The translations under genes and the position numbers were made by a program. Below, in pieces: positions 11,447 through 40,056 of a stretch of DNA of 64,000 bases. The stretch is from an uncultured Ignavibacteria bacterium (GTDB lineage: Bacteria; Zixibacteria; MSB-5A5; RBG-16-43-9), in assembly GCA_964511075.1 (NCBI GenBank), contig CAZEDM010000008.1:34470-98469 (forward strand), written 5' to 3'. The notes under the pieces were generated by a model. That model saw only the letters and a program-made list of their open reading frames with translations. It did not search any database and was not told the DNA's origin. Numbering within the stretch: position 1 is the first letter of the stretch; each line of letters starts with the position of its first letter.

Positions 11447-11983
11447 TTATGATTGCTCTTTGTTCCTTTTTAATAGTGCTTGGCAGGTGGAACAGAAGTT
11501 TTTCGTTTTAAAGTCAATTTCCTCAGCATAGCTTGTAGGGTACATCACACAATTCGGGGTCCGGCAGTGTATCAGGCCAAAAGTATGACCCAGCTCGTGC
11601 ACTGCCTCCTTTTCCAGCCGTTCTTTTAGTCTCTGAGGATTTTTGGGCAGTCCATATAGCTCGTCTCTTAAACGGTAAGTGGAAACCACGGCAGTTTTCC
11701 CGTTCAGCTGAGCTTCTCCGAAAACAAAAGTCAAGACGGGGATATACAGATCCACCTGCGTCACAGCCAGGATTTTGCAGTTGCCTTCTGGAGCCTGGGT
11801 TAGAAGCTGGGATAATATCCAGGTGGAGTTATATTGATTGCGGACAGGATCTCTGCCCTGCTCCAAAAGGAAAGAGCTATCCGAAATGGCAACCGGAAGG
11901 ATAAAGATTTCCTTCAATACCAAGGAAATATTATCCAGGAGGTCCTTGTCCGAGAATTGAAGTGGAAGTATGTATAGTCGCAC
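11447..11983 (-). CDS. amzA: Archaemetzincin-family zinc metallopeptidase
   Basis: HELGHTFGLIHC...C...CSTC, i.e. HExxHxxGxxH followed by a Cys4 zinc ribbon, the archaemetzincin signature. 178 aa. Confidence 0.7.
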   Translation of the reverse strand: MRLYILPLQFSDKDLLDNISLVLKEIFILPVAISDSSFLLEQGRDPVRNQYNSTWILSQLLTQAPEGNCKILAVTQVDLYIPVLTFVFGEAQLNGKTAVVSTYRLRDELYGLPKNPQRLKERLEKEAVHELGHTFGLIHCRTPNCVMYPTSYAEEIDFKTKNFCSTCQALLKRNKEQS

Positions 11984-11985: not shown

Positions 11986-13338
11986 CTATTTCCGCAAGCC
12001 GTATTTTTCGATCTTATTGTAAAGCGTAGCTCTGTCGATCTTCAGAACCTCAGCTGTCCGAGTTATGTTCCATCCCATCTCCTCCAGCAGGCACTTTATG
12101 TGTATCTTCTCGACTGCCTCCAGGCTCCTGTCCTCCGGAACGTATTTCGGACACGGTAAGATGGGGAGGTCATCCACAGAGATGCAGGATTCCTTAGCTA
12201 CAACTATTGCTCTCTCCACGGCATTTTTTAACTCCCTTACGTTTCCCGGCCAGTCATAGGTTGTGAGCTTATCCAGGGCTTCTTTGGAAAAGCTATTTAC
12301 CGGTTTGTTCAAACTGGTCGCTATCTTTTTTAGAAAGAAATTGCACAGAAGCGGGATGTCGGAACGTCTTTCCCTTAAAGGTGGAATAGAGATGGAGAAT
12401 ACGTTTAGCCTGTAATAGAGATCTTCTCTGAACGCTCCCTGCTTTACCGCCAGCTCCAGGTCCCGGTTGGTAGCGCAGATCAATCGAAAGTCGACCTTGA
12501 TGATCTCGTCTCCCCCTACCCGGGCGAACTGCTTGGTCTCAATTACCCGCAGTAGGTCTGTCTGAGATTTGGGGTCGATATTTCCGACCTCGTCCAGAAA
12601 GATGGTTCCTCCATTGGCCATCTCGAATTTTCCCTTGCGCCGATATAATGCCCCGGTGAAAGCTCCCTTCTCGTGACCGAAGAACTCGCTTTCCGTAAGT
12701 CCCTCGGTTAGGCCTCCGCAATTTACCGTGATGATAGGGAAAAATCTCCTGGAGCTTTTGGAATGAATGGCCCGGGCGATAAGCTCCTTGCCGGTTCCGC
12801 TTTCACCTTTAATCATCACACTTGTGTCGGTATTAGCTACAGTGTCAATCATATCAAAGACCTTCAGCATAGCAGAGCTCTCCCCGATGATCTGATCCAC
12901 CTCATAGAGCTCCTGGATCTGTTCTTTAAGCTGGATGTTCTCCGTAAGCAGGCGTTTTTGTTTTATAACGTTGTTTACCAGATGAGAGAGGTAATCAGGA
13001 TCTATTGGCTTGGTGATATAGTCGTATGCTCCTTCCTTGAGAGATTTTACAGCGGTATCAACCGTGGCAAAGGCCGTGATCATGATGATAGTTGCGTTGG
13101 CGTCGATATCTTTGATCCTCTGCTGTAGTTCAATTCCGTCCATACCAGGGAGTTTTATGTCCAGGAATACGATATCCCAGAGACCCGGCTTTATCTTCTT
13201 CAGAGCCTCGGTGGCATCTGCGGCAGAGTCTGCCAGGTAACCGTCTTCCTTAAACCACTCAGTTAAAGAATCCCTCACACTGAATTCATCATCCACAATC
13301 AAAATGCTTACCGAATCTTTATCCTTTTTGAGATTCAT
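11986..13338 (-). CDS. Sigma-54-dependent two-component response regulator (NtrC/Fis family)
   Basis: Receiver domain (ILIVDDE...D). AAA+ sigma-54 interaction motifs GESGTGKE, GAFTGA-like (GAFTGA) and ESEFFGHEKGAFTGA. C-terminal helix-turn-helix. Confidence 0.85.
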   Translation of the reverse strand: MNLKKDKDSVSILIVDDEFSVRDSLTEWFKEDGYLADSAADATEALKKIKPGLWDIVFLDIKLPGMDGIELQQRIKDIDANATIIMITAFATVDTAVKSLKEGAYDYITKPIDPDYLSHLVNNVIKQKRLLTENIQLKEQIQELYEVDQIIGESSAMLKVFDMIDTVANTDTSVMIKGESGTGKELIARAIHSKSSRRFFPIITVNCGGLTEGLTESEFFGHEKGAFTGALYRRKGKFEMANGGTIFLDEVGNIDPKSQTDLLRVIETKQFARVGGDEIIKVDFRLICATNRDLELAVKQGAFREDLYYRLNVFSISIPPLRERRSDIPLLCNFFLKKIATSLNKPVNSFSKEALDKLTTYDWPGNVRELKNAVERAIVVAKESCISVDDLPILPCPKYVPEDRSLEAVEKIHIKCLLEEMGWNITRTAEVLKIDRATLYNKIEKYGLRK

Positions 13339-13375: not shown

Positions 13376-14932
13376 TTAAATTTTAAAGTAGGATCCTCTT
13401 GGCTTCTTTCCTCCACAATGTGCCGGAAGCTGTATGGAGAAAGTGGAACCTTCGCCCACTACTGAATGGGCGTCGATTTTTCCGTTGTGCCTTTCAAGAA
13501 TTCCATAACATACAGACAAACCCAACCCCAGTCCCTTGCCCTCTTTCTTGGTGGTATAGAAGGGCTCAAAGATGTGTGGCAAGTCTGCAGGGGAGATACC
13601 CGGACCCGTATCCTTAAAGTCGATCCTTACATTTTTCCTCTCGGTATCGCAGGAAGTTCTCACAGTTATGCTGCCTCCTTTAGTCATAGCGCCTACCGCA
13701 TTGTCCAGTATAGCCAGGAAGGCTTGCTGGATCTGTTCCCTGTCGCAGATCACTTCTATTTTTCCTTTCTGGTAAGCTTTGATCAGTTCTATCTTATGTA
13801 GTTTCAAATGATGCTCCATTAATTGACTACAGCGGTCCAGGATCTGGTGCAAATCTACTGGAGCAAATTCTCCTATCTGTTTTTTGGAGAAAAGCAGAAG
13901 GTCCTTCACTATATTTCCACATCTATGTGTCTCATCCGCTATCAAAGACATCTTCGTCTGGATGTATGAGAGCTGTTCTGAGGGCAGGTTCAGGGAGGAG
14001 AGTCTCTTCTGGATAAGTCTGGCATAGGTTAGTACTCCTTCCAGAGGATTGTTTAGTTCATGCGCTACGCTGGCGGAGAGTTTTCCCAGGGAAGCCATCT
14101 TCTCGACCTGAATCAAGTGCGACTGCATGCGGTCCAGTTCCTCACGTGCTTTCTTCAGCTCACTGGTCATGCGGTTGAAAGAATTGGACAGTTCCCCGAT
14201 CTCATCTTTCCGCTGAAGGGGAATAGTGTAATCCAGGTTCCCCTGCGCAATCGCCCTTGTCCCCTCGGTTAATTTATGGACCGGGGCGCGAATAAGTGTG
14301 AAAACCAGGAATCCGGTTACGGAAAGAACGCTGAGCACCAGAATCACAGATGCCAATATCGTCTGTCGGCGACTGTGGGAGATATCGGCGTCCACATCAT
14401 TCAAAGACATCTGTACATCCAATACCCCCAGAATGAATTTTTTATCCGGAGACAAATGACAGCCAGAGCCGTAACAGGCGGTTTCGTTTTCAATGGGGTT
14501 GATCAACGCCAAGACCCTATGTCCGTCAGGAGACTTTATGATCCGATGGCGTTGTTCCCTGGCAAGAGCTTTAAGTGGTTCGGGAAAGCGGTGGCATACC
14601 TGGCAGGCCTCAGATTTAATATTGACTTTGTTCATTCTTTCTTCCGGACGGGTGGAGAAGATAATCTCGCCCTTTTTGTTATAAATCCTGATGACCTCAA
14701 AACCTGGCATCTGGCTGAAGTTTTTAAAGATCAGATGGATATCCTCTTTACGATTTATAAGCATACTGTAATGAGTGGATTCCTTTATCAGATCAGTGGT
14801 TCTAAGTGCAGCTAATTGCACCTGATCCAGCAGGTCGTTGGCCTCGCTTTTGACGTTTATGTAGGTAAAAGCAGCCAGCCCCAGGAACATAACCAGAAAC
14901 AGGGCGATGAAAAACTTTAATCCTAAAGGCAT
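13376..14932 (-). CDS. Sensor histidine kinase (HAMP-HisKA-HATPase) with haem c motifs in the periplasmic sensor domain
   Basis: Two transmembrane segments flank a ~170-aa periplasmic domain containing CQVCH (CxxCH) and CYGSGCH (CX4CH). H-box SVAHELNNPL. G-boxes at the C-terminus. Confidence 0.8.
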   Translation of the reverse strand: MPLGLKFFIALFLVMFLGLAAFTYINVKSEANDLLDQVQLAALRTTDLIKESTHYSMLINRKEDIHLIFKNFSQMPGFEVIRIYNKKGEIIFSTRPEERMNKVNIKSEACQVCHRFPEPLKALAREQRHRIIKSPDGHRVLALINPIENETACYGSGCHLSPDKKFILGVLDVQMSLNDVDADISHSRRQTILASVILVLSVLSVTGFLVFTLIRAPVHKLTEGTRAIAQGNLDYTIPLQRKDEIGELSNSFNRMTSELKKAREELDRMQSHLIQVEKMASLGKLSASVAHELNNPLEGVLTYARLIQKRLSSLNLPSEQLSYIQTKMSLIADETHRCGNIVKDLLLFSKKQIGEFAPVDLHQILDRCSQLMEHHLKLHKIELIKAYQKGKIEVICDREQIQQAFLAILDNAVGAMTKGGSITVRTSCDTERKNVRIDFKDTGPGISPADLPHIFEPFYTTKKEGKGLGLGLSVCYGILERHNGKIDAHSVVGEGSTFSIQLPAHCGGKKPRGSYFKI

Positions 14933-22347: not shown

Positions 22348-23595
22348 TTACAATCCGTATTTCTCTATAATCTCTTTCTTCTTCTTTCCCAGGATATCGT
22401 ATTTCCCGCCAATCCTGGTAAAGGCTTCGATGGCTCTATCTAAGTGCTCTTTCTCGTGGTCGGCGGAGAGCTGGACCCTGATTCTTGCCTCACCTCTGGG
22501 AACAACCGGGAAGAAGAATCCAATCACATAGATGCCCTCATAATATAAGTCCTTAGCGAAATCAGATGCCAGCTTTGCATTGTAAAGCATTATGGGAACA
22601 ATTGGATGAGTACCCTCCTTGATGTCAAAGCCAGCCTCGGTCATCTTTTTTCTGAAATAGAGGGTATTGTTCTCCAACTTATCCCTTCTCTCGGTGGTTT
22701 TGGAGATGAGGTCTAAGACCTTGCTGGCAGCAGAGACGATCACCGGAGGGACTGTATTGGAGAAAAGATAAGGTCTGGCTCTCTGACGCAGTAAATCCAC
22801 TATTTCCTTTCTACCGCTGACACCGCCGCCTGAAGCACCTCCCAAGGCTTTGCCCAGGGTGGTGGTGATTATGTCAATTCTACCTACTACCCCGCAATGC
22901 TCGTGTGTCCCCCTGCCGGTCTTTCCCATAAAGCCGGTGGAATGAGAATCGTCCACCAAGACCATAGCGTCATATTTATCCGCCAGCTCGCAGATCTGAT
23001 CCAGTTTAGCGATATCCCCATCCATAGAGAAAACACCATCAGTTATAATCATCCTGAAACGGTTATCCTGGGTATCTTTTAGCTTTTCCTCCAGGTGCTC
23101 CATATTGGAGTGCTTATAAATATATTGTTGTGCCTTGCAAAGCCTCATCCCGTCCACAATTGAGGCGTGGACCAATTTATCTGCAATCATAGCATCTTCT
23201 CTGTCCAGGAGCACATCAAAAACCCCGGCATTGGCATCCATACAGGAGGGGAAAAGGATGGTATCCTCTGTGCCCAAGAACTCGCTTAATTTTCTTTCCA
23301 GCTCACGGTGAACATCCTGGGTTCCGCAGATAAACCTGACTGAGGACATACCATAACCCCTGTCATCCAAGCCCTGATGTGCTGCCCTGATCACATCCGG
23401 ATGGCTGGAAAGTCCCAGATAGTTATTGGCACAGAAATTAATTACCTCTTTTTCCGGAGCTCCTTCCGGAAACTCCACCTTGATATCCGCCCCCTGAGGA
23501 GAATGAATATACCTTTCCTCTTTGCTCAGACCCGCTTCTTTAATCCCCTTTAGCTCGTTTTGATAGAAATCTTTTGACTTACTACTATATGCCAT
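22348..23595 (-). CDS. PLP-dependent alpha-oxoamine synthase (glycine C-acetyltransferase / 8-amino-7-oxononanoate synthase / serine palmitoyltransferase family)
   Basis: Family layout with PLP-lysine motif TLGKALGG and DDSHSTGF. 415 aa. Confidence 0.8.
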
Positions 23596-23727
23596 AAAAC
23601 CTCCTGCAGAATTCTTGATAAAATCATCTTTTAAAAAGCTTATCGGAGTACAAATCTTTAGAGTTGCCAGAATTATTTTGTGGGGATTAGAGGCAAAGCT
23701 AAAGCTTTACACTCCATACTTTCCTCT

Positions 23728-23979
23728 TTATATCTTCACAAACTCCTTGAGTAGAATAACGATTTTATTTACCGTATCAAAAGTTTCCGGCGTTGCCTTG
23801 GCATCCGGTATCTGGATTTTGTATTTTTTCTCCAGAAAAGTTTTCAAAGAAACCATAGAGAAAGAATCCACTATGCCGGAGGAGATCAAAGGGGTGTCCT
23901 CCTTGACCTCCATATCGCTATCCTCTTCCAGAAACTCTTTTTTTACATAATCGATGATGATTTTTTTTGCATCTTCCAT
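23728..23979 (-). CDS. Acyl carrier protein-like
   Basis: 83 aa, acidic, phosphopantetheine attachment motif GIVDSFSMV (DS*F). Confidence 0.65.
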   Translation of the reverse strand: MEDAKKIIIDYVKKEFLEEDSDMEVKEDTPLISSGIVDSFSMVSLKTFLEKKYKIQIPDAKATPETFDTVNKIVILLKEFVKI

Positions 23980-24002
23980 CTGTTACTCCTTTCTGCCTGT
24001 GT

Positions 24003-24120
24003 ATTATCGTAGTGCGATCCTGCTTGTCCCGCAGTAAGCGGGATTAGGGTCGCTTCAGGCGAGGCTGAAAGTCTTCGCCAGGATCCTGTGGACAAGACCT
24101 TGACGGCCTCGCACTACAGG
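24003..24120 (-). other. Highly structured 118-nt intercistronic element between the ligase and ACP genes
   Basis: 9-bp terminal inverted repeat GTAGTGCGA...TCGCACTAC encloses internal hairpins (CCCGCagtaaGCGGG; GGCGAGgctgaaagtcTTCGCC). 60% GC in a lower-GC context. Seen in sequence only. Confidence 0.3.
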
Positions 24121-25878
24121 TCAATCGTTTTCCAAGGTTGATAAATCCCCAACCGGCTCGCCTCTTTCCTGTGCCCGAAGCAGGCGCCGCATGATCTTTC
24201 CGCTTCTGGTTTTGGGCAGAGATTCAACAAACTCTATCTCCTGGGGCATTGCCAAAGGGGACAGTCTCTTACGGATGAAGTTCATAATATCCAATTCCAG
24301 GTCATCCGATTTTTCAAAGCCCGGTTTTAAAGCTACAAAGGCCTTGACCACCTCCATATTTATTGGATCTGGTTTCCCAATAGCGGCTGATTCTGCTACT
24401 GCCTGATGCTCTAAAAGGGCAGATTCCACCTCAAAGGGGCTGACCAGGTGTCCGGCAGTATTAATGACATCATCATCCCTTCCCACAAACCAGAAATACC
24501 CATCCTTGTCGATGCTGGACCTGTCTCCAGTCAGATACCAGCCGTTTTTAAATTTACTCTCATAGGTAAGGGGGTTATTCCAGTAAGCCCTGAACATAGA
24601 GGGCCAGCCCGGTTTAAGGGCAATCAAACCCACAGAGCCAATTTTATTGATAGGATTGTAGCTGGAGTCAAGCACAGTTGCCACAATTCCGGGAAAAGGT
24701 TTGCCCATGGAGCCGGGACGAACCTCCATCCCAGGGTAATTCGAGATGACAATAGCACCGGTCTCGGTCTGCCAGTAAGTATCATGGAAAGGAAGTCCGT
24801 AAACCTTCTTGGACCATATGACTGCTTCCGCATTCAATGGTTCCCCTACGCTGCATAGATGTCTTAAAGAGGACAGGTCAAACCTCTTCACAATCTCCTC
24901 TCCTCCCTTCATCAGAAGCCTTATGGCGGTAGGAGCGGAATACCAAACTGTTATCTTATGCCTCTGGATTAAACCATACCATTTCTCCGGCTGGAACCCG
25001 CTATCCAGGACCACCTGGGTGATACCCAGGCTCCACGGTCCAATAATTCCATAGGAGGTGCCGGTAACCCAGCCCGGGTCTGCAGTACACCAGTAGATAT
25101 CATCAGCTCCTAAATCCAGGCACCATTTCGTAGTTAAAGATTGCGCCAGTATAGAGTAGTGGACATGCAGAGCTCCTTTGGGTTTTCCAGTCGTGCCTGA
25201 GGTATAATGCAGAACCGAGGGTGTCTCAAAAGTGGTGGGGAAGATGTCAAACTCCTCCACCCTGTGAGCTTTTCTGACTGAATATGCTATCTCCTTTTCC
25301 TGAGGTTTGAAATTTTCATCATCCGTGGCAATGATGATCTTCTTGAGCTCAGGCAGCTGGTTTTTTATCCTCCTTATCCTTTTAATAAGTTTTGGAATGG
25401 TAACTATTGCAGAGGCTTTGCCATCTTCCAGACGGGTTAAAAGGGAATCCTCCCCAAAGGCTGAGAATAGTGGTGCTACTATTCCGCCCATCTTCAAGGT
25501 TCCCAGAAAAGAGAAATATAGGTCCGGCACCCGGTCCATAAAAACGAAGACCCTTTCTCCTTCTCTGATTCCTAAATCCCTTAGAAGCCGGGCGTAATTA
25601 TTAGAGTAGACCCTCAGATCATCAAAGGTGAATCTCTGTACCTCTCTGGTATACCCCTCCCAGATCATGGCAGGCTTTTTTCCATTTCCCTGCTGGCAGA
25701 TTCTGTCTGAACAGTAATAACCGATATTAAAGGGTAAGTCCTCTTTATAGCCTAATTCCTTCAGGGCAAATGGCCACTCAAAGTTTTTATATCTTTGATC
25801 ATAAGAACCTATGTTGCTCATTAGAATGACTCCTTCTTTCCTGAATAGTGTGCTTAAAAAACGTGGAAAAGATAACAT
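24121..25878 (-). CDS. AMP-dependent synthetase/ligase (acyl-CoA or acyl-ACP synthetase)
   Basis: AMP-binding motif YTSGTTGKPKG, plus GEP...TGD and SGKIMRR motifs. 585 aa. Confidence 0.8.
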   Translation of the reverse strand: MLSFPRFLSTLFRKEGVILMSNIGSYDQRYKNFEWPFALKELGYKEDLPFNIGYYCSDRICQQGNGKKPAMIWEGYTREVQRFTFDDLRVYSNNYARLLRDLGIREGERVFVFMDRVPDLYFSFLGTLKMGGIVAPLFSAFGEDSLLTRLEDGKASAIVTIPKLIKRIRRIKNQLPELKKIIIATDDENFKPQEKEIAYSVRKAHRVEEFDIFPTTFETPSVLHYTSGTTGKPKGALHVHYSILAQSLTTKWCLDLGADDIYWCTADPGWVTGTSYGIIGPWSLGITQVVLDSGFQPEKWYGLIQRHKITVWYSAPTAIRLLMKGGEEIVKRFDLSSLRHLCSVGEPLNAEAVIWSKKVYGLPFHDTYWQTETGAIVISNYPGMEVRPGSMGKPFPGIVATVLDSSYNPINKIGSVGLIALKPGWPSMFRAYWNNPLTYESKFKNGWYLTGDRSSIDKDGYFWFVGRDDDVINTAGHLVSPFEVESALLEHQAVAESAAIGKPDPINMEVVKAFVALKPGFEKSDDLELDIMNFIRKRLSPLAMPQEIEFVESLPKTRSGKIMRRLLRAQERGEPVGDLSTLEND

Positions 25879-26365: not shown

Positions 26366-27202
26366 TCACCAACCCTGTTTACTTGTCACCATCAGTTCAT
26401 TTGCCAACCTGAAGCATACTTTGTCAGGCAAGACTTGACGGAGATATTTTATGTTAACTCCCCCATCCGGAAGGGTATGGCCTATTTGGTTAACCTCTAC
26501 ACCTCTATGCCTGAGGAAGAAATTCAGATGTTGAGCCTCTTCCAGCAAGTATCTTCTGGCACTGACTCCAGTGAAGAACTTCTCAAGTTCAGTGCGGCTT
26601 TCTGTCCGCTCTATTGTTGCTAACCAGCCCTTCCCATATGGGTCCTCTTGTACCAGCTCCGGATGTTGAGCCAGTCCGGAATTTATTTGAACCAGATGTC
26701 CAGAGAGAGGGGTAGCTAAGAAAACCATTCCGGCAGAAGAGAGTATCTTTCCAAATACCTGATCCTGGGTAAGATCATTCTCCAGCTCGGAGAATTGCAA
26801 CTTAGCGGGTAGCGGAAGGACATATGCCAAAAGTTCGTCAACTCCTATTCTCCATTTCCGCCCTTCCAACGGTTGAGCCCATAGGTGAGAGGGGTGTAAA
26901 TAGACTCCTTCTCTCATCTCAACGGGCGTGAAGGTGAAAAATAGGAGGGGAGGATTTTTCCCACTTCCAGGGACGGGGCATTCTTCAGATTCTCTTAGAG
27001 ACTGAGATCTGTGCTGTTCGGCTTTTGATCGTATCTTTCTCGAACCGACATGAGAGCGCATGGCTTTGTCTAACTCACAGTGTTCACAGTCATAGTTAAT
27101 CGGACATAATTTATAGGAGATCACTCCTGCGGTCATCCAGATACAACGACCGTCCTGGTGGACAGGCTGGGCATCTTGTTTTTTTGATATATTCTTTTTC
27201 AT
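26366..27202 (-). CDS. Glycine-cleavage H-protein-like (lipoyl-domain fold) protein with N-terminal Cys4 extension; lipoyl-lysine position not conserved
   Basis: C-terminus PLSGHLVQINSGLAQHPELVQEDPYGKGWLATIE aligns with GcvH PVSGEVVEVNEAL..PELVN.DPYGEGWL. N-terminus carries C-x13-C-x5-C-x2-C. Last gene of the cytochrome/FeS/NrfD operon. Confidence 0.5.
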   Translation of the reverse strand: MKKNISKKQDAQPVHQDGRCIWMTAGVISYKLCPINYDCEHCELDKAMRSHVGSRKIRSKAEQHRSQSLRESEECPVPGSGKNPPLLFFTFTPVEMREGVYLHPSHLWAQPLEGRKWRIGVDELLAYVLPLPAKLQFSELENDLTQDQVFGKILSSAGMVFLATPLSGHLVQINSGLAQHPELVQEDPYGKGWLATIERTESRTELEKFFTGVSARRYLLEEAQHLNFFLRHRGVEVNQIGHTLPDGGVNIKYLRQVLPDKVCFRLANELMVTSKQGW

Positions 27203-27215
27203 AAAGATCGTTTTA

Positions 27216-28463
27216 TCAAAAGTTTTCCTCTGTACCTATCTCGCTATATTGTGGATATTCTCGGTGAACAGGCATACGGTTCACTATCCACCTGTAGGTT
27301 AAAATCTCAATGGTGATTATAGCCAGAACGATCAGTAATTCCTTCCAGTATATGAATACACGGTGCGGAAGTTTCCAGTTAAGGGCAATTAAGGAGACAT
27401 TGAAGCGGTTGACCGCCACTCCCAGTATGGTGAGAATGGCTGTAAACTGGGTCAGGACTACATTTCTCTTCTTCACCGCCAAGGCGAAAAGGAAACAAGG
27501 CAGAAGCACAAAGATAAAAATCTCCACCAGAAACCAGTGACCCCAAGAGGTATTCAGGAGGTTCCAGTGGTTACTGTGAGCCACGCCGATCCACTTCAGG
27601 CAGAAGTAGGCTAAGAGAACAAATGAAGCTGCTTTGCCTAAACCCAGGGTGAGGTTATCATAATTGGCGGCCTGGAGTGGATTTATCTGACTTTTGAGCG
27701 TTTTTTTGGATACCATAGCTACCACGATGATCATGGATAGTCCGGCGAAGATACTTGAAACGAAGAAAAACAGGGGGAGGAATTGTGAATACCAAAGCGG
27801 GTGAAGTTTTCCGGGGACTAAAAGAAACAGGGCGCCCAGAGCAGATTGGTGCAAGGTCGAGAGGATCACGCCGAAAATGGTGGCTCCCACGGTTATCTTC
27901 AAAGCCCACCTGCGAAATCTGTTTGCCCCAAGCCATTCGAAGATAGCAGGGCAGAACTCAACCAGCTGGGTTGAAAGATAGAGTGCCACATGCCAACCCA
28001 CCAGAAATAGAACTGAGCTTGTTCCATAGGAAACAACCATAGGATAGGGAAGCCTCCAGGGACGTCCTAAATCGAAGAGCAGAAATACTACGGCGAAGAA
28101 ATAACCCAGAAATCCGGTAAGTATAGCTGGTCGTACCAGGGGATGATAATCTTCAAGCCCGAAGATATAAACGGCTGCTGCCATGATGAAGCCGGTAGAG
28201 GCTAAGGGAACGCCGGTAAAAAGTCCCCAGTTAAGAAAAAGACTCCAGGGCTGGTCCTGTGAGGCATGGGTCACAGCCGCCAGGCCCTGGGTGAAGCGCA
28301 TGACCATAAAGGGTAGCCCTGCCAAAATAATTATTCCAGCAACAATATTGAAAGGCTTTAAAAGGTTTCTCAGGTAGTCTTTAACTGAAAGCCCCAGAAA
28401 AATCCTCTCCCTGATCCAGTTCTGGAAAACACTGGTTTTCTCAGCGTATTCGTACTCGGTCAT
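27216..28463 (-). CDS. NrfD/PsrC-family integral membrane quinone-interacting subunit
   Basis: About 10 transmembrane helices; NrfD-like motifs. Start overlaps the upstream FeS gene by 4 nt. Confidence 0.8.
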   Translation of the reverse strand: MTEYEYAEKTSVFQNWIRERIFLGLSVKDYLRNLLKPFNIVAGIIILAGLPFMVMRFTQGLAAVTHASQDQPWSLFLNWGLFTGVPLASTGFIMAAAVYIFGLEDYHPLVRPAILTGFLGYFFAVVFLLFDLGRPWRLPYPMVVSYGTSSVLFLVGWHVALYLSTQLVEFCPAIFEWLGANRFRRWALKITVGATIFGVILSTLHQSALGALFLLVPGKLHPLWYSQFLPLFFFVSSIFAGLSMIIVVAMVSKKTLKSQINPLQAANYDNLTLGLGKAASFVLLAYFCLKWIGVAHSNHWNLLNTSWGHWFLVEIFIFVLLPCFLFALAVKKRNVVLTQFTAILTILGVAVNRFNVSLIALNWKLPHRVFIYWKELLIVLAIITIEILTYRWIVNRMPVHREYPQYSEIGTEENF

Positions 28464-29389
28464 GCCTGCTCCTCCTTCCTCTCAGGGGTCCACTCCCCCT
28501 CCTTGAGCATTTGTTCCCGGTGTTTGGTGAACATGTAAAACCCGCCCAACAGGACAGGCCAGATTACCAATACAGCAGGGACCATGGTGAGAAATCCTCT
28601 GGTTAACTCTGGATAGGGCCTGGTGCCCACATCCATGGGAAACCCCAGCTTCTCAAAGGGAATTTCGGATATATATAGCCAGCTGGTTCCCCCAACTTCA
28701 CGCTCACCATAGATATGGTCAATGTATTTTTCGGGTTTGCTCCTTATCTTCTCTCTGGCTAATTTGATCAGCTCGCTCCTCCTGCCGAAGGTCAGAGCCT
28801 GAGTCGGGCAGATCTTCACACAGGCTGGACTTTCACCCTTTTTGATTATCCTCTCATAGCATAAGGTGCATTTTCTAATCCGAGGGGTGAATGGTTTATT
28901 GTATTCATAGGTTGGAATATAAAAGGGACAGGCGGTCATGCAGTAACGGCAGCCTATGCAGATATCCTTATTGTAAACCACCGCTCCCTCCGGAGTTTTC
29001 TTCAAGGCTGCTACTAAGCAGGCGGAGGCGCAAGCTGGTTCGTCACAGTGATTGCACTGTTTCTTAACATAGAAGGGCTTCTCCTCATCCCTCGGATTCG
29101 AATAGCGGTTGACCACGGTATAGCTTTCCTGGTCAGTTCTTCTCTTTTCCTCAAACACCGATTTGTCGTCAAATGTTTTTATAGGTTTATTGGGAAGTTT
29201 ATTCTGGTCCTTGCAAGCCCATTCACACTTTCGGCATCCGGTGCATAGAGGTATGTCGTGAAGCACGCCAAAGCGATCCGGGTAACCAGGAAGATTTTCC
29301 TGAGCCATGGCTTTTTTGTAACTTCCAATTAGGCTCGTGGATCCTATCGTTCCCAGAGTTTTCAGGAAACCCCTTCGATTGAGTGACAT
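28460..29389 (-). CDS. Tat-exported 4x[4Fe-4S] ferredoxin-like subunit (NrfC/PsrB/HmcB-like) with C-terminal transmembrane helix
   Basis: Twin-arginine signal NRRGFLKTLG. Four Cys clusters (CTGCRKCEWAC, CNHCDEPACASAC, CIGCRYCMTACP, CTLC...CVKICP). Confidence 0.85.
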   Translation of the reverse strand: MSLNRRGFLKTLGTIGSTSLIGSYKKAMAQENLPGYPDRFGVLHDIPLCTGCRKCEWACKDQNKLPNKPIKTFDDKSVFEEKRRTDQESYTVVNRYSNPRDEEKPFYVKKQCNHCDEPACASACLVAALKKTPEGAVVYNKDICIGCRYCMTACPFYIPTYEYNKPFTPRIRKCTLCYERIIKKGESPACVKICPTQALTFGRRSELIKLAREKIRSKPEKYIDHIYGEREVGGTSWLYISEIPFEKLGFPMDVGTRPYPELTRGFLTMVPAVLVIWPVLLGGFYMFTKHREQMLKEGEWTPERKEEQA

Positions 29390-29391
29390 GG

Positions 29392-30543
29392 TTATAATCT
29401 CCTTTCTTTGAGGGTTCCGGGGCTACTTTCAGGGTAGGCTCGGCCGTCATCGTGGCAATTTCCACAGGAGGGTTTATCCTCGAACCTTCTTTCCACATGG
29501 CACTCTGCGCAGTCCAGCTCCTGGTGGATTTCGTCCAGGACCAATCCGGTTACAGTATGATCAAAGTTCTCGGTGTTCCAATTGCTATGGCAGGAAACGC
29601 ACGCCGGTTTAAGTTTGGTTAACTTGCGCCCGGCGGGATGACAGGAGCGGCAGCTGAGAGCCTGGTGAAATCTATTCAATGGCCATCCGGTTCGAGCATG
29701 GTCAAAACCTTTCCTCTCACTCTGAGCATGACAGATGGAGCAGGTTTTCATGGTGTGACAGGTGATGCAAGGTTTGTGGTGCTCTTTGGAGGTTTTCATT
29801 GCCGGTTCAGGTTCTTCCCCTACCTCATGACAGCGAGTGCAGCTCTGCTCACTATGACAATTCACGCATTTAAGCTCAAACAGCTCCACATGATCTTTGT
29901 GATGGAAGGTTACCACCGGGCCATTGGCGTAGTTTGTATGATAGACTTTTTTGTCCGGCACGGTTATAGTTGGATGCTTTGTCCCGATAATATCGGTGGT
30001 GTCGATCTTTTGCATAGACATCTCTCCAGGTGTTTTTTTTGCATGACAGATATCGCAGGCAGTGCTGTGGCTCCATTCCCTGTGACAGTTCATACATTGA
30101 CGATGATAAGCTCCCTTGAGCCCGGGCTGACGCAGATCCTCCGGATTTAAAGGGCCACCGTGGCACTCCCTGCAGGGAGGTATGTGACCGGGAGGAGCAT
30201 AGTGGTGGCAGACTGCACATCCTTGACCCATCTCCGCCATTTCAGCATGCAGCTTATGGGCGAATATCACCGGCTTAAACAAATCCTCAAGCTGATTTAA
30301 GATAACCACCTCTGGCCCTTCTTCAGGAGTATGGGGACTCATTTTCTCGGGAAAGCGAGGACAGGACCGGAGACAAGGGTCATTTTTAGTAGGAGTAAAA
30401 CAGATATGGCAGTCACTGCAGGTTGCGTCTGCCGGGAACTCATGAGCAGGTTCGTTTTTCTCTCCCATACTGCTTGTAGAAACCAGGAGAATAAAAATAC
30501 CCGTAGCCAAGATGCTACTCATAACCATTTTGCTGAACACCAC
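29392..30543 (-). CDS. Periplasmic multihaem cytochrome c with 13 CxxCH motifs
   Basis: Signal peptide. 13 CxxCH motifs counted in 383 aa. First gene of a tightly coupled three-gene module. Confidence 0.85.
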   Translation of the reverse strand: MVFSKMVMSSILATGIFILLVSTSSMGEKNEPAHEFPADATCSDCHICFTPTKNDPCLRSCPRFPEKMSPHTPEEGPEVVILNQLEDLFKPVIFAHKLHAEMAEMGQGCAVCHHYAPPGHIPPCRECHGGPLNPEDLRQPGLKGAYHRQCMNCHREWSHSTACDICHAKKTPGEMSMQKIDTTDIIGTKHPTITVPDKKVYHTNYANGPVVTFHHKDHVELFELKCVNCHSEQSCTRCHEVGEEPEPAMKTSKEHHKPCITCHTMKTCSICHAQSERKGFDHARTGWPLNRFHQALSCRSCHPAGRKLTKLKPACVSCHSNWNTENFDHTVTGLVLDEIHQELDCAECHVERRFEDKPSCGNCHDDGRAYPESSPGTLKERRL

Positions 30544-30574
30544 ATCTCCTTTTTAGTTTTTATTTTACGTGTAT

Positions 30575-31246
30575 TTATTTTATATTAAAAAACTCTCTGG
30601 CTACCTTATTCCATTGTTGTATGGTTAATTCATCCCCTAAATCAGGTTTGATCTCGCCTCCCTCCTGTAACACTGGAAATTCAGCCGGGACTAATACTGA
30701 TATTAAATGCTCTTTGGCAGCCTGATTCCAACGTTTAAGCAGTTCACCAGAAAGAAGATTTCTCAGTTCTCGAGAGAGATTAATCGGTTCAATTTTTAAA
30801 ATCCAGTTCTTTTCCGGGTCCTCACGATTCAGAAGGATTGGCTCCTCAGCCAGTTTTTTATTGACCTCCACAACCCTTCCACTAATAGGGGAGGCCTGAA
30901 CCAATTCCCTATTGTCTCTTTTTATCTTCCAGGCGCTGCTTCCCTGGTATATTCTGTCCCCACGCTTAGGCAGTTCTATCTCTTTAACCGATCCGAAAAC
31001 CGAAGAGGTGAACTTATCCATGCCAATATTCACCAGGTTAGGCTGGATCACCTCTGCCCAGGTATGGTTTGGATGTGTGAACACTCCCCTGATCATCCTG
31101 GAAGCTTCAGTCATAAATTGTCTCACCGGGCGGTAGACAGGGGTATTTAACAATCTCCAGAAAAGAATGATTATAAACATGAAGGCGATAGCTATCAGGT
31201 ACTCATTAGCTTTGGTAGCAAGTAAGAATTCTTGAAGAGTTTGCAT
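30575..31246 (-). CDS. Membrane-anchored GcvH-like (lipoyl-domain fold) protein, paralog A
   Basis: N-terminal transmembrane helix. HTWAEV...IGMDKFTSSVFGSV...PISGRVVEVNKKL...NWILKIE aligns with GcvH (HEWV...VGITD.AQ...PVSG.VV.VN..L...GWL.K). No Lys at the lipoylation position. Confidence 0.5.
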   Translation of the reverse strand: MQTLQEFLLATKANEYLIAIAFMFIIILFWRLLNTPVYRPVRQFMTEASRMIRGVFTHPNHTWAEVIQPNLVNIGMDKFTSSVFGSVKEIELPKRGDRIYQGSSAWKIKRDNRELVQASPISGRVVEVNKKLAEEPILLNREDPEKNWILKIEPINLSRELRNLLSGELLKRWNQAAKEHLISVLVPAEFPVLQEGGEIKPDLGDELTIQQWNKVAREFFNIK

Positions 31247-31312
31247 ATAAAGCTCCTTTGATGAGGTATCTTCTTAAAAAAACCTGTTTACCTTTATCCT
31301 TATATCTATGGC

Positions 31313-31972
31313 TTAATCCGTTGAGTCAAAAAACTCCCGGTTGACCTTCTCCCACTGTTCGGAGGTTAATTCGTTCCCCAGGTCAGATTTAATTTCCCCG
31401 CCCTCCTGCAGGACAGGAAATTCTGCCGTGGTCAAAGTAGCTACGAGCTGATCCTTAACCGCCTGATTCCAGCGCTTCAGGATGGTTCCGTGTAGCAGGT
31501 TCTGGAGCTCTCCTTTCATTCTATCCGGTCTGATTTTTAATATCCAATTCCTTTCAGTATCCTTCTGGGTTAAAAGCTTAGGATTATCCGCCAGCTCCTG
31601 GTTTAAAGCCACCACCGTGCCGCTAATGGGTGAAGTCTGAGTCAACTCTCGGTTTCCCCTTCTTAATAACCAGGCTTTTTCTCCCTGATGAATCCGGCTT
31701 CCCACAGGAGGAAGAGATAACGCCTCGACTGAGCCGAAAACTGATGTGGTGAAATCGTCCACTCCCACTGTAATTAAACTGGGATCGAGAACCCTGACCC
31801 AAGCATGACCTGGGTGCACGAAAATTCCCTCTAAGGCGGAGGGGAGCTTCAACTTGGTGGTCAAGGGGGTTTTCTCTTCTGCTGGGGCAACGGCCTTTCT
31901 TTGACGCCAGATACCAATTCCTATGGCTAAAGCCACGAAAAGTAAAATAAGGATTACCGACATTTCAATCAC
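31313..31972 (-). CDS. Membrane-anchored GcvH-like protein, paralog B (tandem duplicate of 30575-31246)
   Basis: About 45% identical to paralog A by eye. HAWVRV...VGVDDFTTSVFGSV...PISGTVVALNQEL...NWILKIR. Confidence 0.5.
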   Translation of the reverse strand: MIEMSVILILLFVALAIGIGIWRQRKAVAPAEEKTPLTTKLKLPSALEGIFVHPGHAWVRVLDPSLITVGVDDFTTSVFGSVEALSLPPVGSRIHQGEKAWLLRRGNRELTQTSPISGTVVALNQELADNPKLLTQKDTERNWILKIRPDRMKGELQNLLHGTILKRWNQAVKDQLVATLTTAEFPVLQEGGEIKSDLGNELTSEQWEKVNREFFDSTD

Positions 31973-31998
31973 CTCGCTTTTTCCTAATAGTTAACCTC

Positions 31999-32094
31999 TC
32001 ATCGTGTTTCGGTAACTTCAATCTTTTTTCTTCCACGCAACAAACCTATCCCCATTGCTAACACAGTGAAAAGCAAACCTAATAATATTGACAT
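31999..32094 (-). CDS. 31-aa single-transmembrane micro-ORF resembling the membrane anchors of the GcvH-like paralogs (possible remnant of a third copy)
   Basis: Own translation MSILLGLLFTVLAMGIGLLRGRKKIEVTETR; compare MSVILILLFVALAIGIGIWRQRK of the 31313 gene. Not in the supplied ORF track (below its length cut-off). Confidence 0.25.
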   Translation of the reverse strand: MSILLGLLFTVLAMGIGLLRGRKKIEVTETR

Positions 32095-32687
32095 TTTTGC
32101 TCACCTGACCTTTCTATTAGAAAGGAACACTTGTCTGTACTCATTGTAAATAAGGGCAAATAGAGTGCCGCAAAACCTACCATCTAAGATGGTATCTGCT
32201 AAGTCCCAGAATCATATGAGATTATCGTACAATGTATATAAGGAAAGTTAGAATTATTCAAAATTTTTAGCGCAAGCACGTTGAAAATTTCTACAGAGTA
32301 TTTGAGGTTGAATGTTGGATTATTAGTAATTACAGTGCTGTCAATATCTTAGTAATTGTAGAGAAATTCAACATCAAGTGGCGTTTATTTCCACATTTTT
32401 CTTTTATTTAACTATAGTATCAAAAAATTACTCATCCTTAGTCAGAGATCAAGGCATTAAAAAAATTGTTGCTGAGGTCAAACACGGTTTTCTTACAAAT
32501 TGATAAATTAGATCTATGTGATATTAATTGATTCTCTAAGTGGAAGAAAAGAAAAGAATTACGAGGAGGAGAATTTCGAATTGACTTCTCAATTTTCATT
32601 ATTTTTTTTCTTATTTTTTTAAAAAAAAGCTTGACATTATGATATCCGTCATATAAAATAAGATGAATGAGATATGGTTAATCAATT

Positions 32688-32786: not shown

Positions 32787-35438
32787 ATGAGTAATAGAAA
32801 AAGGATTTTGATTGTTACCTGCTTTTTGATTTTTATGGGCTTTCAATTATCTTCAGCCGCATCTCCCGTGGCTAAAATAAGGCTTTTGGCTTATTCAGAA
32901 AGAGACCTTGCCCTTGATACCACTTTGACAAGAACTTCGACCGGGTTGCCTAATGTAGGTGTTGGGAGTATGGTTTATTTTACTGCTAATCCTGAGGAGC
33001 CCGGTGCTTATACTTATACCTGGACTCTTAGCACCCCTCTTGGTTCCTCCACCACCCTGAGCGATGATGCTATACAGAATCCTACTATGGTTCCGGATTT
33101 GGAGGGAACTTATATAGTTACTCTGGTGATAGCAGATACCTCTGGAACAAGCGATCCTGATACGATGTATATCAGTGCCGGAACCTGGGTGGGCACAGGG
33201 CAAATAGGCGGGATGACCCCGCATTGGCCCCAGTGTGGCTTCTTCTGCCATAATGATAAGATCGCCGAATGGGAGGAAACCGGACACGCTGTTATCTTTC
33301 AGCAAGGTTTAGACGGGATAGCCAGTAGCCACTATGGTTCAAGTTGTATCAGCTGTCACACGGTTGGATATGATACAGACCCGGCCGCAGATAATTTCGG
33401 CTTTGATGATGTGGCAACATTATTAGGCTGGACCTTCCCGGATACTCTATTTCCTGGTCAGTTTGATTCCCTGGTAATCAATTATCCGGATTTAGCTAAC
33501 TTGGGAAATATCCAGTGTGAGAACTGTCATGGTCCGGGTAGCAGGCACGGCGGAGAGGACAGATGGAACAGGATTGCGGTTAGCTATGGATCCGGGGTCT
33601 GTGCCTATTGTCATGACTCAGGCACTCATCATATAAAACCTTATCAGTGGGATTATTCCAGGCATCCATTTGCAGTAGGGGAACATGATCACATGAACCG
33701 AACTTCCTGCTCCAGATGTCATACTGCTCAGGGTTATATAGACGAGACCATAAACGGAGGTTCCTCCGGTGCACCTTATAAGTACGCGGAGGGTGTAACC
33801 TGTAGCGCCTGCCATGACCCTCACAGCGATGCCAATGAGTATCAGCTCAGGAGAGCAGAGGTTTACGGTGTTTGTTACGACTGTCATACGCTAAGAGTCA
33901 GCAGTCACGGGATCCATCATTCGCACCAATCCGATATGTTAGAAGGAAACAGCGGATACGAGTACCCAGGAGAGCTGTATCCGGTTGGGAGTCATACTTA
34001 CACAACCGAGAAATGCGTGGGATGTCATATGGCAACATCTCCTGCGGATAGCCTGGTCACCAAGGTGGGCGAGCATACCTTTGCGGTCTTCTCAGACAAC
34101 GGGACTCCGGACGACTCTACTGATGACATCCTGAATGATGAGGGGTGCAAGGGATGTCATGGCAGTGTAAGCCTGGTTTTCCTCAGGAAAAGTCAGGAGA
34201 AATTTGTGAATCTACTTGATTCGCTGGCAGCTTTACTTCCCAAGGATGGAAGTGGTGAGGTCATTAGCCATACGGAAGATGATCTTCTGACCCTGACTGA
34301 AATAGGAGGAGCTTACAACTACTATTTTGTGCTGGATGACGGAAGTTATGGCACACACAACCCCAGATATGCGGAAAAACTCTTATGGGATTCCATTAAG
34401 AGGTTAGTAGCTCAGATGCATGCCGGGGACATAGTGGAGATATCGGATGTGCCTAATGATCAGGGCAAACAGGTGAGGATCCTCTGGAATATGTTTGCCG
34501 GCGAGGACGATGTCGATCATCCGGTCACTCAATATGGGATCTGGCGAAGAGATGAGTCCTCTACCGCAAAAGCTTTGACTGGGAAGGTGAATACCTTCAA
34601 GGAGTTGCTCTCCTACTATCCTAACATAGAAGCCGGAGCTACCTTCTCGGTGGCAGGGACGATCTGGACTTTCTTGGGCTCAATCCCGGCCTCCCATCAT
34701 GAGCGTTATGGTTATGTAGCTCCTACTCTTTTTGACTCCACCATTGTTTCCGGAATGCAGTGGTCAGTTTTCTACGTATCCGGTCATACGGCTGACCCTG
34801 GCATCTTCTACGAGTCCTACCCGGATAGCGGATATTCAGTGGACAACCTGGTTCCCGCTCCTCCCACCGGCCTGGCAGCTATTATTCAGGGGCGGAATGT
34901 CCAGTTGAGCTGGGATGACTCTTCGGATCCTGATTTTGACTACTTTGCCGTCTATAGAAGCACTACCCCGGGATTTACCCCCTCTCCGGCTAACCGTATA
35001 GGCTATAGTTCCAATCCCGAGTATGTGGACTCCAATTTAGTTAATGGAACTCATTATTATAAATTAACCGCCACCGATTTCTCTGGAAACGAAGGAGGTC
35101 CATCGCTTGAGCTTCCGATTAACATCACCTCAGTCAGGGAGGAAGAGGGAGCTGTGCCCAAGGTGTTTGCCCTGTTCCAGAACTATCCCAATCCCTTCAA
35201 CCCGTATACTCAGATCAAATTCTCCGTGGCTAATAGAACTAAGGTGGGACTCTCGGTTTACAATATCCTGGGACAGAGGGTGAAAACTCTACTGGATGAA
35301 GAGATGGAAGCAGGGAATTATGTGGCTACTTGGGACGGAAAGGATGAGAAAGGATATGATGTCTCCAGCGGAATCTATTTCTACAAACTGAATACCAAGG
35401 AGTTCACCCAGACCAAAAAGATGCTTCTGGTCAGATAG
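32787..35438 (+). CDS. Secreted multihaem cytochrome c (8 CxxCH + 1 CX3CH) with fibronectin-III domain and T9SS-type C-terminal sorting domain
   Basis: Signal peptide. Haem motifs include CGFFCH. FN3-like PAPPTGL...LSWDDSSD...YRS. C-terminus FALFQNYPNPFNP.T.I.F......VGLSVYNILGQRV..L.........WDGKDEKG..VSSGIYFYKL......TKKMLLV is the Por/T9SS CTD pattern. Confidence 0.85.
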   Translation: MSNRKRILIVTCFLIFMGFQLSSAASPVAKIRLLAYSERDLALDTTLTRTSTGLPNVGVGSMVYFTANPEEPGAYTYTWTLSTPLGSSTTLSDDAIQNPTMVPDLEGTYIVTLVIADTSGTSDPDTMYISAGTWVGTGQIGGMTPHWPQCGFFCHNDKIAEWEETGHAVIFQQGLDGIASSHYGSSCISCHTVGYDTDPAADNFGFDDVATLLGWTFPDTLFPGQFDSLVINYPDLANLGNIQCENCHGPGSRHGGEDRWNRIAVSYGSGVCAYCHDSGTHHIKPYQWDYSRHPFAVGEHDHMNRTSCSRCHTAQGYIDETINGGSSGAPYKYAEGVTCSACHDPHSDANEYQLRRAEVYGVCYDCHTLRVSSHGIHHSHQSDMLEGNSGYEYPGELYPVGSHTYTTEKCVGCHMATSPADSLVTKVGEHTFAVFSDNGTPDDSTDDILNDEGCKGCHGSVSLVFLRKSQEKFVNLLDSLAALLPKDGSGEVISHTEDDLLTLTEIGGAYNYYFVLDDGSYGTHNPRYAEKLLWDSIKRLVAQMHAGDIVEISDVPNDQGKQVRILWNMFAGEDDVDHPVTQYGIWRRDESSTAKALTGKVNTFKELLSYYPNIEAGATFSVAGTIWTFLGSIPASHHERYGYVAPTLFDSTIVSGMQWSVFYVSGHTADPGIFYESYPDSGYSVDNLVPAPPTGLAAIIQGRNVQLSWDDSSDPDFDYFAVYRSTTPGFTPSPANRIGYSSNPEYVDSNLVNGTHYYKLTATDFSGNEGGPSLELPINITSVREEEGAVPKVFALFQNYPNPFNPYTQIKFSVANRTKVGLSVYNILGQRVKTLLDEEMEAGNYVATWDGKDEKGYDVSSGIYFYKLNTKEFTQTKKMLLVR

Positions 35439-40054: not shown

Positions 40055-40056
40055 GG

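Follow-up and report, generated by a model that had tools for sequence, protein, structure and literature searches.

Gene content of the operon

The DNA analysed here, called the window throughout, is a stretch of 64,000 nucleotides of contig CAZEDM010000008.1 from an uncultured bacterium of the Zixibacteria. Its minus strand carries an operon of seven open reading frames (ORFs) that encodes a membrane redox module, made up of a 13-haem cytochrome c, an HmcB-type iron-sulfur (Fe-S) protein and an HmcC-type subunit of the NrfD family, together with three proteins that have the fold of the glycine-cleavage H protein (GcvH) and lack its lipoyl lysine (Table 1). Two of the three, called G0-A and G0-B, are membrane-anchored and precede the module; the third, G1, is soluble, carries a four-cysteine (Cys4) motif and follows it. 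Close homologues are labelled 'candidate division Zixibacteria' by their sources, and the whole cassette is kept within Zixibacteria relatives.

The first-pass annotation had read the cytochrome, Fe-S and NrfD genes as an Hmc/Nhc-like set, and this was upheld. The HmcB-type protein passed the NCBIfam HmcB model (NF045715; 427.5 bits, cutoff 420) and has a twin-arginine translocation (Tat) motif (RRGFLK), four ferredoxin-type Cys groups and a C-terminal transmembrane tail, in line with its original description as a Tat-exported tetra-cluster ferredoxin with such a tail. The HmcC-type protein passed Pfam NrfD (PF03916; 60.2 bits, cutoff 25.8), and its best match was NCBIfam HmcC (NF045714; 467.7 bits, under the cutoff of 550); nine transmembrane-like segments were detected in it, and a tenth probably lies inside a long stretch rich in Lys and Arg. 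The NCBIfam HybA and HybB models gave 227.8 and 212.6 bits, respectively, for the Fe-S/NrfD pair, both under their cutoffs, and HybB-like is the name given to one cluster member by its JGI source. The cytochrome has the 13 CxxCH motifs and the signal peptide expected of the periplasmic 13-haem protein first described. It did not reach the cutoffs of the HmcA (NF045713; 54.4 bits, cutoff 400) or NhcA (NF045784; 34.3 bits, cutoff 640) models, and its likeness to the C-terminal domain of true 16-haem HmcA is confined to residues 79-170 (36% identity). Neither the cytochrome b HmcE nor the CCG-type Fe-S protein HmcF was found in the window operon, by ORFs and family scans. The four-nucleotide start/stop overlaps, which had been taken to couple the operon tightly, occur at the cytochrome/HmcB and HmcB/HmcC junctions only, the remaining gaps being 13-66 nt.

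Table 1. Positions of the operon, its genes and the candidate regulatory features in the window
Feature	Position	Strand	Basis
Sigma-54-type -24/-12 promoter-like element cGGCACtctatTTGCc	32155..32170	-	Read from the sequence; 61 nt upstream of ATG 32094
Operon of seven ORFs	32094-26366	-	ORF reading
31-aa peptide with a single transmembrane segment, paralogue of the G0-A anchor	31999..32094	-	DNA identity to the start of G0-A
G0-A, 216 aa: N-terminal transmembrane helix, lipoyl-less GcvH-fold domain, C-terminal helical extension	31313..31963	-	Pfam GCV_H
G0-B, 223 aa: HmcD-like transmembrane anchor, lipoyl-less GcvH-fold domain, C-terminal extension	30575..31246	-	GCV_H, 60.8 bits
Periplasmic 13-haem cytochrome c, c3/c7-type, 383 aa, with signal peptide	29392..30543	-	13 CxxCH; Pfam Cytochrom_CIII and Cytochrome_C7
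HmcB/HybA-type Tat-exported tail-anchored 4x[4Fe-4S] protein, 309 aa	28460..29389	-	NCBIfam HmcB; RRGFLK
HmcC/HybB-type NrfD-family polytopic membrane subunit, 415 aa	27216..28463	-	Pfam NrfD
G1, 278 aa: soluble; Cys4, disordered linker, lipoyl-less GcvH-fold domain, C-terminal extension	26366..27202	-	GCV_H, 45.6 bits
HAMP histidine kinase (HK), periplasmic domain with CQVCH at residues 110-114	13376..14932	-	Pfam HAMP, HisKA, HATPase_c
NtrC-type sigma-54-dependent response regulator (enhancer-binding protein, EBP)	11986..13338	-	Pfam Response_reg, Sigma54_activat, HTH_8
Archaemetzincin-family (Peptidase_M54) protein	11447..11983	-	NCBIfam archmetzin, Pfam Peptidase_M54

An H-protein fold without the lipoyl lysine

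All three G proteins pass the gathering score of Pfam GCV_H (PF01597; 22.2), with 45.6, 60.8 and 61.3 bits, and none reaches the cutoff of the GcvH equivalog model TIGR00527 (115.85), against which they score 45.7, 52.7 and 55.8 bits and their relatives 62-70 bits. The core of the AlphaFold2 model of G1 has a predicted local distance difference test score (pLDDT) above 90, and Foldseek gave a target TM-score of 0.89 to H-protein. In gapless HMMER alignments to PDB H-proteins, the lipoyl-lysine position is occupied by Ala157 in G1 and by the Asn of the hairpin RRGNRE in G0-A; counted back from the shared P-I-S-G, it is the Asn of KRDNRE in G0-B. The same column is variable in an alignment of 47 sequences of the G0-B family, holds A/V/G/T/P in 105 close homologues of G1 and holds G/E/A/D/S/N in 135 distant ones. 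Among 182 aligned proteins from other genomes, it was E/S/G/D/N in G0 (Lys in 7/65), E/A/G/D in G1 (Lys in 1/58) and Gly in 45/59 proteins of a double-Cys4 relative, G2 (see below). The residue beside the hairpin tip is basic in most of the 65 G0 proteins (36 Arg and 17 Lys).

Profile search, alignment and Foldseek comparison agree on a true GcvH fold with no conserved lipoyl Lys, and the original observation that all three window proteins carry another residue at the lipoylation position stands. A further statement, that G1 has no Lys anywhere in the hairpin region, was incorrect: K152 precedes the tip by five residues, at a position that is K/R in the Zixibacteria subfamily and mostly Trp in the wider family. 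Judged from their sequences, the G proteins are genuine H-protein-fold domains that as a family are not lipoylatable at the canonical site. G0 and G1 also have in common a helical extension at the C-terminus that bears a (T/V)L(P/Q)(D/E)GG motif; by this shared, family-specific extension G0-A, G0-B and G1 are paralogues of one distinct subfamily. Public sources that name these proteins label them 'glycine cleavage system H protein'. A role as true GcvH in glycine cleavage was rejected on the missing Lys, on scores far under the equivalog cutoffs and on the lack of gcvT and gcvP, neither of which turned up among the annotated neighbours in the window or as a recurrent neighbour across about 130 loci. 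Genes of the hdr or lipoate-ligase type were likewise not found in the window operon.

Membrane anchors of the G0 proteins and the Cys4 site of G1

The tandem arrangement of two membrane-anchored GcvH-like paralogues was confirmed, G0-A and G0-B having one N-terminal transmembrane helix each. Such a helix is present in 32 of 34 G0 proteins, and its flanks hold a family mean of 3.2 Lys and Arg residues after the helix vs 1.0 before it, so that the GcvH-fold domain is predicted to lie in the cytoplasm. The anchor of G0-B scored 25.8 bits against NCBIfam HmcD, under the cutoff of 34, and Pfam PF28260 ('DVU_0533'), which is HmcD of Desulfovibrio vulgaris, is precomputed on homologues of G0-B, weakly in the closest one. 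For G0-A, the ATG at 31963 (216 aa) is a more likely start than the GTG at 31972 (219 aa); a public collection includes an exactly matching sequence of 216 aa.

The short ORF at the head of the operon had been described as an anchor-only remnant of 31 aa. At the DNA level it matches the beginning of the G0-A gene with 75% identity, which supports its origin as a diverged copy of that anchor. It may nevertheless be a genuine small membrane protein and no decayed leftover, since an intact equivalent is present in a relative, locus L133 (9859-9954), in which the neighbouring G0-A is 80% identical; none was found in the more distant Zixibacteria loci L005 and L007. No NCBIfam model matched the 31-aa ORF, and HmcD matched neither it nor the G0-A anchor. 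Its identification as a conserved HmcD was rejected on the missing family match and on its absence from L005 and L007, in spite of the intact copy in L133.

G1 has no signal peptide. Its N-terminal part holds the invariant motif C20-x12-C33-x5-C39-x2-C42 (consensus RCIWMTAGVISFKLCPxxYDCExCxFD), followed by a low-confidence linker of about 40 residues, and in the Zixibacteria subfamily C263 is a fifth invariant Cys. A profile of the Cys4 motif had no significant match in PDB sequences (E >3) or in Pfam, and zinc and Fe-S at this site are therefore indistinguishable by homology.

A G0-HmcB-HmcC-G1 core in at least eight phyla

An HMMER search with a G1 family profile against 1.84 billion representative proteins gave 183 clusters at E <1e-30; nearly all top matches were 250-320 aa long and had the Cys motif, some in two copies. 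A scan for the back-translated Cys motif in one genome per species gave at least 120 loci, for whose annotation a simple ORF caller was combined with ad hoc hidden Markov models (the single-motif and G2 locus counts below are among the matches listed). The listed loci came from Zixibacteria, Desulfobacterota, Bacteroidota (including Ignavibacteria and Chitinophagaceae), Calditrichia, Eisenbacteria, Acidobacteriota, Planctomycetota, Gemmatimonadota and Aminicenantes. Of 69 loci with a single-motif G1, 48 contained genes of both the HmcB-like and the HmcC-like type in the 8-kb chunk. In 44 of these 48, G0 paralogues without the motif (one or two) were encoded as well, most often in the order G0-HmcB-HmcC-G1 (written G0-B-C-G1 below). 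Single-motif loci without the HmcB and HmcC pair were mostly cut by the chunk ends. A multihaem cytochrome was present in only 11 of the single-motif loci. The G0-HmcB-HmcC-G1 core is conserved in at least eight phyla and the cytochrome is optional; co-occurrence of the G proteins with NrfD-type modules in other genomes is strongly confirmed. That the conserved unit is this core and not the cytochrome had been missed in the first-pass annotation. Outside the Zixibacteria, the only G1 homologue of the first search that was so named by its source lies in a 'Deltaproteobacteria' chromosome (locus L001, CP070692.1) assembled from a metagenome; its neighbouring genes, among them the NrfD gene, are broken up into fragments, which suggests a frameshift-rich assembly or decay.

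Two variants of the arrangement bear on the roles of the G proteins. On a Desulfobacterota contig (L009), the genes for a soluble G0 and for G1 stand divergently beside a complete hmcABCDEF operon, including HmcE and HmcF and with a separate HmcD of 45 aa. The other variant is G2, the double-Cys4 relative of about 309 aa, which was found in 63 loci, mostly of Desulfobacterota, with no HmcB, HmcC or G0 gene nearby in 63/63; strain NaphS2 is one carrier of G2.

A signal peptide of any kind is missing from about 25 HmcB homologues of Bacteroidota, Ignavibacteria, Calditrichia and Acidobacteriota, all in cytochrome-less G0-B-C-G1 modules (L013, L029, L031, L035, L039, L045, L072, L073, L090, L112 and others). 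A stop codon lies just upstream of their short N-terminus, the C-terminal transmembrane tail and the charge pattern of the tail are kept, and the topology of the accompanying HmcC seems to be the usual one. Either these proteins would hitch-hike on a Tat partner or the modules would face the cytoplasm. An inverted topology of HmcC where HmcB has no Tat signal was considered and rejected, as the pattern of Lys and Arg in the loops is identical in both classes.

A sigma-54 regulatory trio, putative sigma-54 promoters and domain fusions

The most frequent further neighbour families in both locus types were the NtrC-type sigma-54 activator and Peptidase_M54 (M54). In most loci the gene order was G0-B-C-G1-HK-EBP-M54, co-directional, or HK-EBP-M54-G2, with M54 always the last gene of the trio. 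The trio directly follows G1 in L133, and the kinase gene does so in both L133 and L005. In a reverse search from M54 homologues in metagenomes, an EBP was present in 22/22 and a G protein in 17/22 informative loci, and EBP lay directly upstream of M54 in nearly all loci with enough upstream sequence. The regulators of the window score best against AtoSC- and ZraSR-type models. Its archaemetzincin passed NF033823 (166.8 bits, cutoff 145), and HELGH, part of the HExxHxxGxxH-type motif, is kept in the family alignment. An arrangement of PAS kinase, EBP and archaemetzincin followed by a sigma-54-promoted G2 is very common in Desulfobacterota (for example, L037, L052 and L077), and HdrA-like and HdrB/C-like genes lie near G2 in 11-13/61 loci.

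A candidate sigma-54 -24/-12 element, GG[CT][AG][CT]-N5-[TC]TGC, was found 30-100 nt upstream of 50/61 G2 genes (about 2 expected) and upstream of 17 of the 47 genes that open a G0-B-C-G1 module (chance would again give about 2). The strict sigma-54 pattern with at most one mismatch had no match in the window; the site upstream of the window operon was found by reading the sequence and with a relaxed core pattern whose background was measured.

Kinases linked to G0-B-C-G1 modules mostly have two transmembrane helices with a CxxCH motif in the intervening periplasmic domain. A periplasmic CxxCH was present in 29/36 and 32/37 kinases adjoining such modules, including the window kinase (others are in L005, L029, L039 and L090), which has an additional CYGSGCH (CX4CH) near residue 146. 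The kinases linked to G2 are soluble PAS kinases without CxxCH. For the periplasmic domain, sub-threshold Pfam scores only (Mcp40H-20_sensor, 18-21 bits vs 27) and no match among PDB sequences were obtained, and homology to known haem sensor domains is for this reason not claimed; the recurrent motif suggests a c-haem sensor domain outside the Pfam models. The window kinase is probably the cognate sensor of the cluster, to judge from its CxxCH and from the gene order in relatives.

The Cys4+GcvH unit also occurs fused to other domains. In a protein of 505 aa (P0274), whose gene follows a G0 gene and was found on two independent contigs, Cys4, GcvH domain and extension are joined directly to HisKA-HATPase, the G1 part replacing the usual transmembrane, haem and HAMP sensor region. 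A fusion of 434 aa combines a [2Fe-2S]/[4Fe-4S] region like the N-terminus of NuoG with Cys4+GcvH, and its gene lies downstream of HK-EBP-M54, next to G2 and to genes of the NuoE/NuoF-like type. A third protein (P0307, 1391 aa) has three GcvH-like domains with an FAD-linked oxidase, a 4Fe-4S dicluster and two CCG domains, in an HdrD/GlcF-like arrangement. The link to sigma-54-associated kinase and archaemetzincin genes, the stand-alone occurrence of Cys4+GcvH proteins and the kinase fusion suggest a regulatory or adaptor role for this module. All three, like the HmcD-like nature of one G0 anchor, had been overlooked in the first-pass annotation. A single ORF of 511 aa joining G1, a transmembrane segment and G0 was seen in a long-read metagenome-assembled genome of an Acidobacteriota (L046, 5988-7523) and may be a sequencing or read-through artefact. 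It was set aside as evidence owing to its long-read source and odd topology, in which GcvH-fold domains would lie on opposite sides of the membrane.

Interpretation of the G proteins

The reading we prefer, at a probability of roughly one half for the composite, is that the G proteins would be GcvH-fold subunits without a cofactor, placed on the cytoplasmic side of an Hmc/Nhc-like module that G1 probably links to the kinase. Its two parts differ in strength: we regard it as likely that the HmcB/HmcC module has G0 and G1 as accessory subunits on its cytoplasmic side, and the signalling link is put forward tentatively, at somewhat less than even odds. The operon would encode a periplasm-facing, quinone-interacting electron-transfer module consisting of a Sec-exported 13-haem cytochrome, the Tat-exported HmcB ferredoxin and a cofactor-less NrfD/HmcC subunit, with lipoyl-less GcvH-fold proteins on the cytoplasmic face in place of HmcE and HmcF. 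As one G0 anchor is HmcD-like, HmcD-type helices probably dock the G0 proteins onto HmcC; G1, whose Cys4 would be a metal site (Zn or Fe-S), probably pairs with G0 through the shared C-terminal extension, and the GcvH fold would serve as a protein-protein adaptor rather than as a cofactor carrier. The kinase, with its putative periplasmic haem c, would sense the periplasmic redox state, and the EBP would drive the operon from the sigma-54 promoter. G1 would most likely couple the state of the membrane module, or a cytoplasmic redox state sensed at Cys4, back to the kinase. The sequences themselves show the folds, the missing lipoyl Lys, the conserved gene order, the promoter motifs, the haem-binding motif of the kinases and the fusions; the contact of G0 and G1 with HmcC, their cytoplasmic topology, the kind of metal and the part played in signalling are inferred.

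Several observations weigh against this interpretation. In the window, the trio is on the same strand as G1 but about 11 kb of unrelated genes separate the two, and several clusters without G1 have the order G0-B-C-HK-EBP-M54, in which the HmcC and kinase genes abut or overlap. The G proteins are products of sigma-54-controlled operons, which also fits mere outputs of the regulatory system. The Cys4 region of G1 has a pLDDT below 50 in the AlphaFold2 model. NrfD proteins have no redox cofactors, so no electron path can join Cys4 to the Fe-S chain in the periplasm, which leaves the model without an evident input for G1. A Tat signal is missing from about half the HmcB homologues of other phyla, so the architecture may differ between lineages. 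The locus sample, finally, consisted of 8-kb chunks picked by the Cys motif or M54 and annotated with a simple ORF script.

The main rival gives G0 and G1 a purely structural or bioenergetic part: they would cap a respiratory cytochrome:quinone oxidoreductase on its cytoplasmic side, stabilising HmcC, for example, or gating its N-side proton half-channel, G1 would have no signalling role and the two-component system would do no more than regulate the operon. It accounts for the synteny equally well; we nonetheless consider it doubtful, as it leaves unexplained the G1-histidine kinase fusion, the stand-alone G2, whose only conserved neighbours are HK-EBP-M54, and the single co-directional order in which structural and regulatory genes are kept from phylum to phylum. 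The fusion and the stand-alone G2 also tell against a role of the G proteins as cytoplasmic maturation or assembly chaperones, a possible but less favoured idea of the first-pass annotation, according to which they would, in the manner of Tat proofreading chaperones, hold Fe-S clusters or load them into HmcB before export, with the Cys4 of G1 as a transient cluster carrier, or insert HmcC. Their predicted cytoplasmic location, the nature of HmcB as a cofactor-loaded Tat substrate, the shared operon (usual for dedicated chaperones) and a Cys4 that could bind Fe-S would fit such a role. G0 is, however, permanently anchored by an HmcD-like helix, the HmcB homologues without a Tat signal keep G0 and G1 all the same, and G2 lacks HmcB and HmcC neighbours altogether; we hold this alternative to be improbable.

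Very improbable, in our estimation, is the swinging-arm function that had been raised at first by analogy to LbpA, by which the GcvH-like domains would use another residue (for instance a Cys, K152 or the basic tip of the hairpin) to shuttle a covalently bound sulfur or acyl group. The well-conserved GcvH fold, the conserved basic residue beside the G0 hairpin tip and one distant relative near HdrA/CCG/DsrE genes are in its favour, yet no subfamily has a conserved Lys at or near the tip (Arg predominates), K152 is replaced by Trp in most of the wider family, and genes for lipoate ligase, lipoyl synthase, hdr and dihydrolipoamide dehydrogenase are not conserved in the clusters. A more far-reaching proposal than the composite reading is that G0-HmcB-HmcC-G1, the haem-c kinase, the EBP and the archaemetzincin together form a new signalling machine in which the quinone-linked HybAB/HmcBC-type module senses electron flux or redox state instead of serving as an enzyme of bulk respiration, and this we judge unlikely. 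The lipoyl-less GcvH-fold Cys4 adaptors would in that case relay the state of the module through the kinase to sigma-54 transcription, the metalloprotease may cut the disordered linker of the G proteins, and in Zixibacteria the 13-haem cytochrome would monitor the adjacent network of extracellular-electron-transfer cytochromes.

Relation to known systems

The module shares with Hmc of Desulfovibrio vulgaris (HmcABCDEF) the HmcB-type tail-anchored Tat ferredoxin and a multihaem c3-type cytochrome, and it has an NrfD protein and a single transmembrane helix that resemble HmcC and HmcD at scores under the cutoffs of those models. It differs from Hmc in having no HmcE or HmcF, in having 13 rather than 16 haems with a single HmcA-like domain, in the fusion of the HmcD-like helix to a GcvH-fold domain and in an HmcC that scores under the equivalog cutoff. 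With Nhc (NhcABCD) it has in common the cytochrome, Fe-S, NrfD and small membrane subunits and the lack of a transmembrane haem b or a cytoplasmic CCG protein; unlike in Nhc, the cytochrome is not NhcA, the D-type subunits carry GcvH-fold domains and there is an extra Cys4+GcvH protein. By the analogy to Nhc, the module would transfer electrons between the quinone pool and carriers in the periplasm (PMC8076601). HybA and HybB of Escherichia coli hydrogenase-2 are the same two families, paired and translationally coupled, whereas the window has no hydrogenase genes and has extra cytoplasmic partners and sigma-54 control. The G proteins differ from GcvH and from LbpA of the sHdr system by the missing lipoyl Lys, the C-terminal extension and the transmembrane anchor or Cys4. 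A working analogy is offered by the N-terminal barrel-sandwich-hybrid domains of NqrA and RnfC, cofactor-less lipoyl-like folds that are structural elements on the cytoplasmic side of membrane redox complexes.

In PspA-PspF, ZraP-ZraSR and BceAB-BceS, accessory or effector proteins feed back on their own regulators. By analogy, an operon product encoded beside, and controlled by, a sigma-54/two-component system may here modulate that system; there is no homology to those proteins, and the partner in the present case is a redox membrane module.

The first-pass annotation had regarded the G proteins as an undescribed accessory set, and the database and literature searches bear this out. Pfam and NCBIfam hold no family specific to them, and no curated NCBIfam cutoff was reached. 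Full-text searches pairing NrfD/Hmc with GcvH/glycine cleavage, or archaemetzincin with GcvH/sigma-54, returned nothing on an association. The words 'glycine' and 'lipoyl' do not occur in a review of the NrfD family (PMC8076601), and proteins of this kind go unmentioned in the section consulted of a survey on Tat tail-anchored ferredoxins. A genome paper that speculated on a lipoylated carrier near the Act complex concerns a different case (PMC3543383). What is novel at the locus is a set of accessory subunits and a dedicated regulator set on a known NrfD-type quinone module.

Modules of the HmcBC/HybAB/NhcBC type are central to anaerobic respiration. To our knowledge, the role of HmcD/NhcD and the function of cofactor-less NrfD on the cytoplasmic face have gone unexplained since the Hmc operon was described. 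That HmcD-type helices may be docking helices for an unnamed family with a lipoyl-less H-protein fold offers a testable lead. The loci also provide a first consistent genomic context for bacterial archaemetzincins and correct a systematic mis-annotation as 'glycine cleavage system H protein'. A signalling machine of the kind outlined above would, if true, be categorically new and a new bacterial way of sensing electron flow.

Other features of the window

Divergent from the operon, a run of multihaem cytochrome genes (32787-47451, plus strand) looks like an extracellular-electron-transfer island. It includes an 883-aa protein that combines regions resembling PKD and MtrC with a C-terminal sorting domain for type-IX secretion, more cytochromes of the c7/MtrC-like kind and a Rieske/cytochrome b pair (b6-type split; 39599-41326), and its linkage to the G0-B-C-G1 cassette is preserved in L133. 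Between G1 and the trio (22348-25878, minus strand) lie a gene for an AMP-dependent acyl-CoA synthetase-like protein, a small ORF resembling an acyl carrier protein (no Pfam match) and a gene for a class I/II aminotransferase like 8-amino-7-oxononanoate synthase or serine palmitoyltransferase; this segment looks like an insertion, since G1 and the kinase trio are adjacent in relatives. On the plus strand, at 9733-11394 and 15386-18666, dockerin type I domains occur in several proteins that look secreted. Such domains are unusual outside cellulosome-forming Firmicutes, and their partner domains here include SBBP repeats of the beta-propeller type, DUF362 and an EF-hand-like region.

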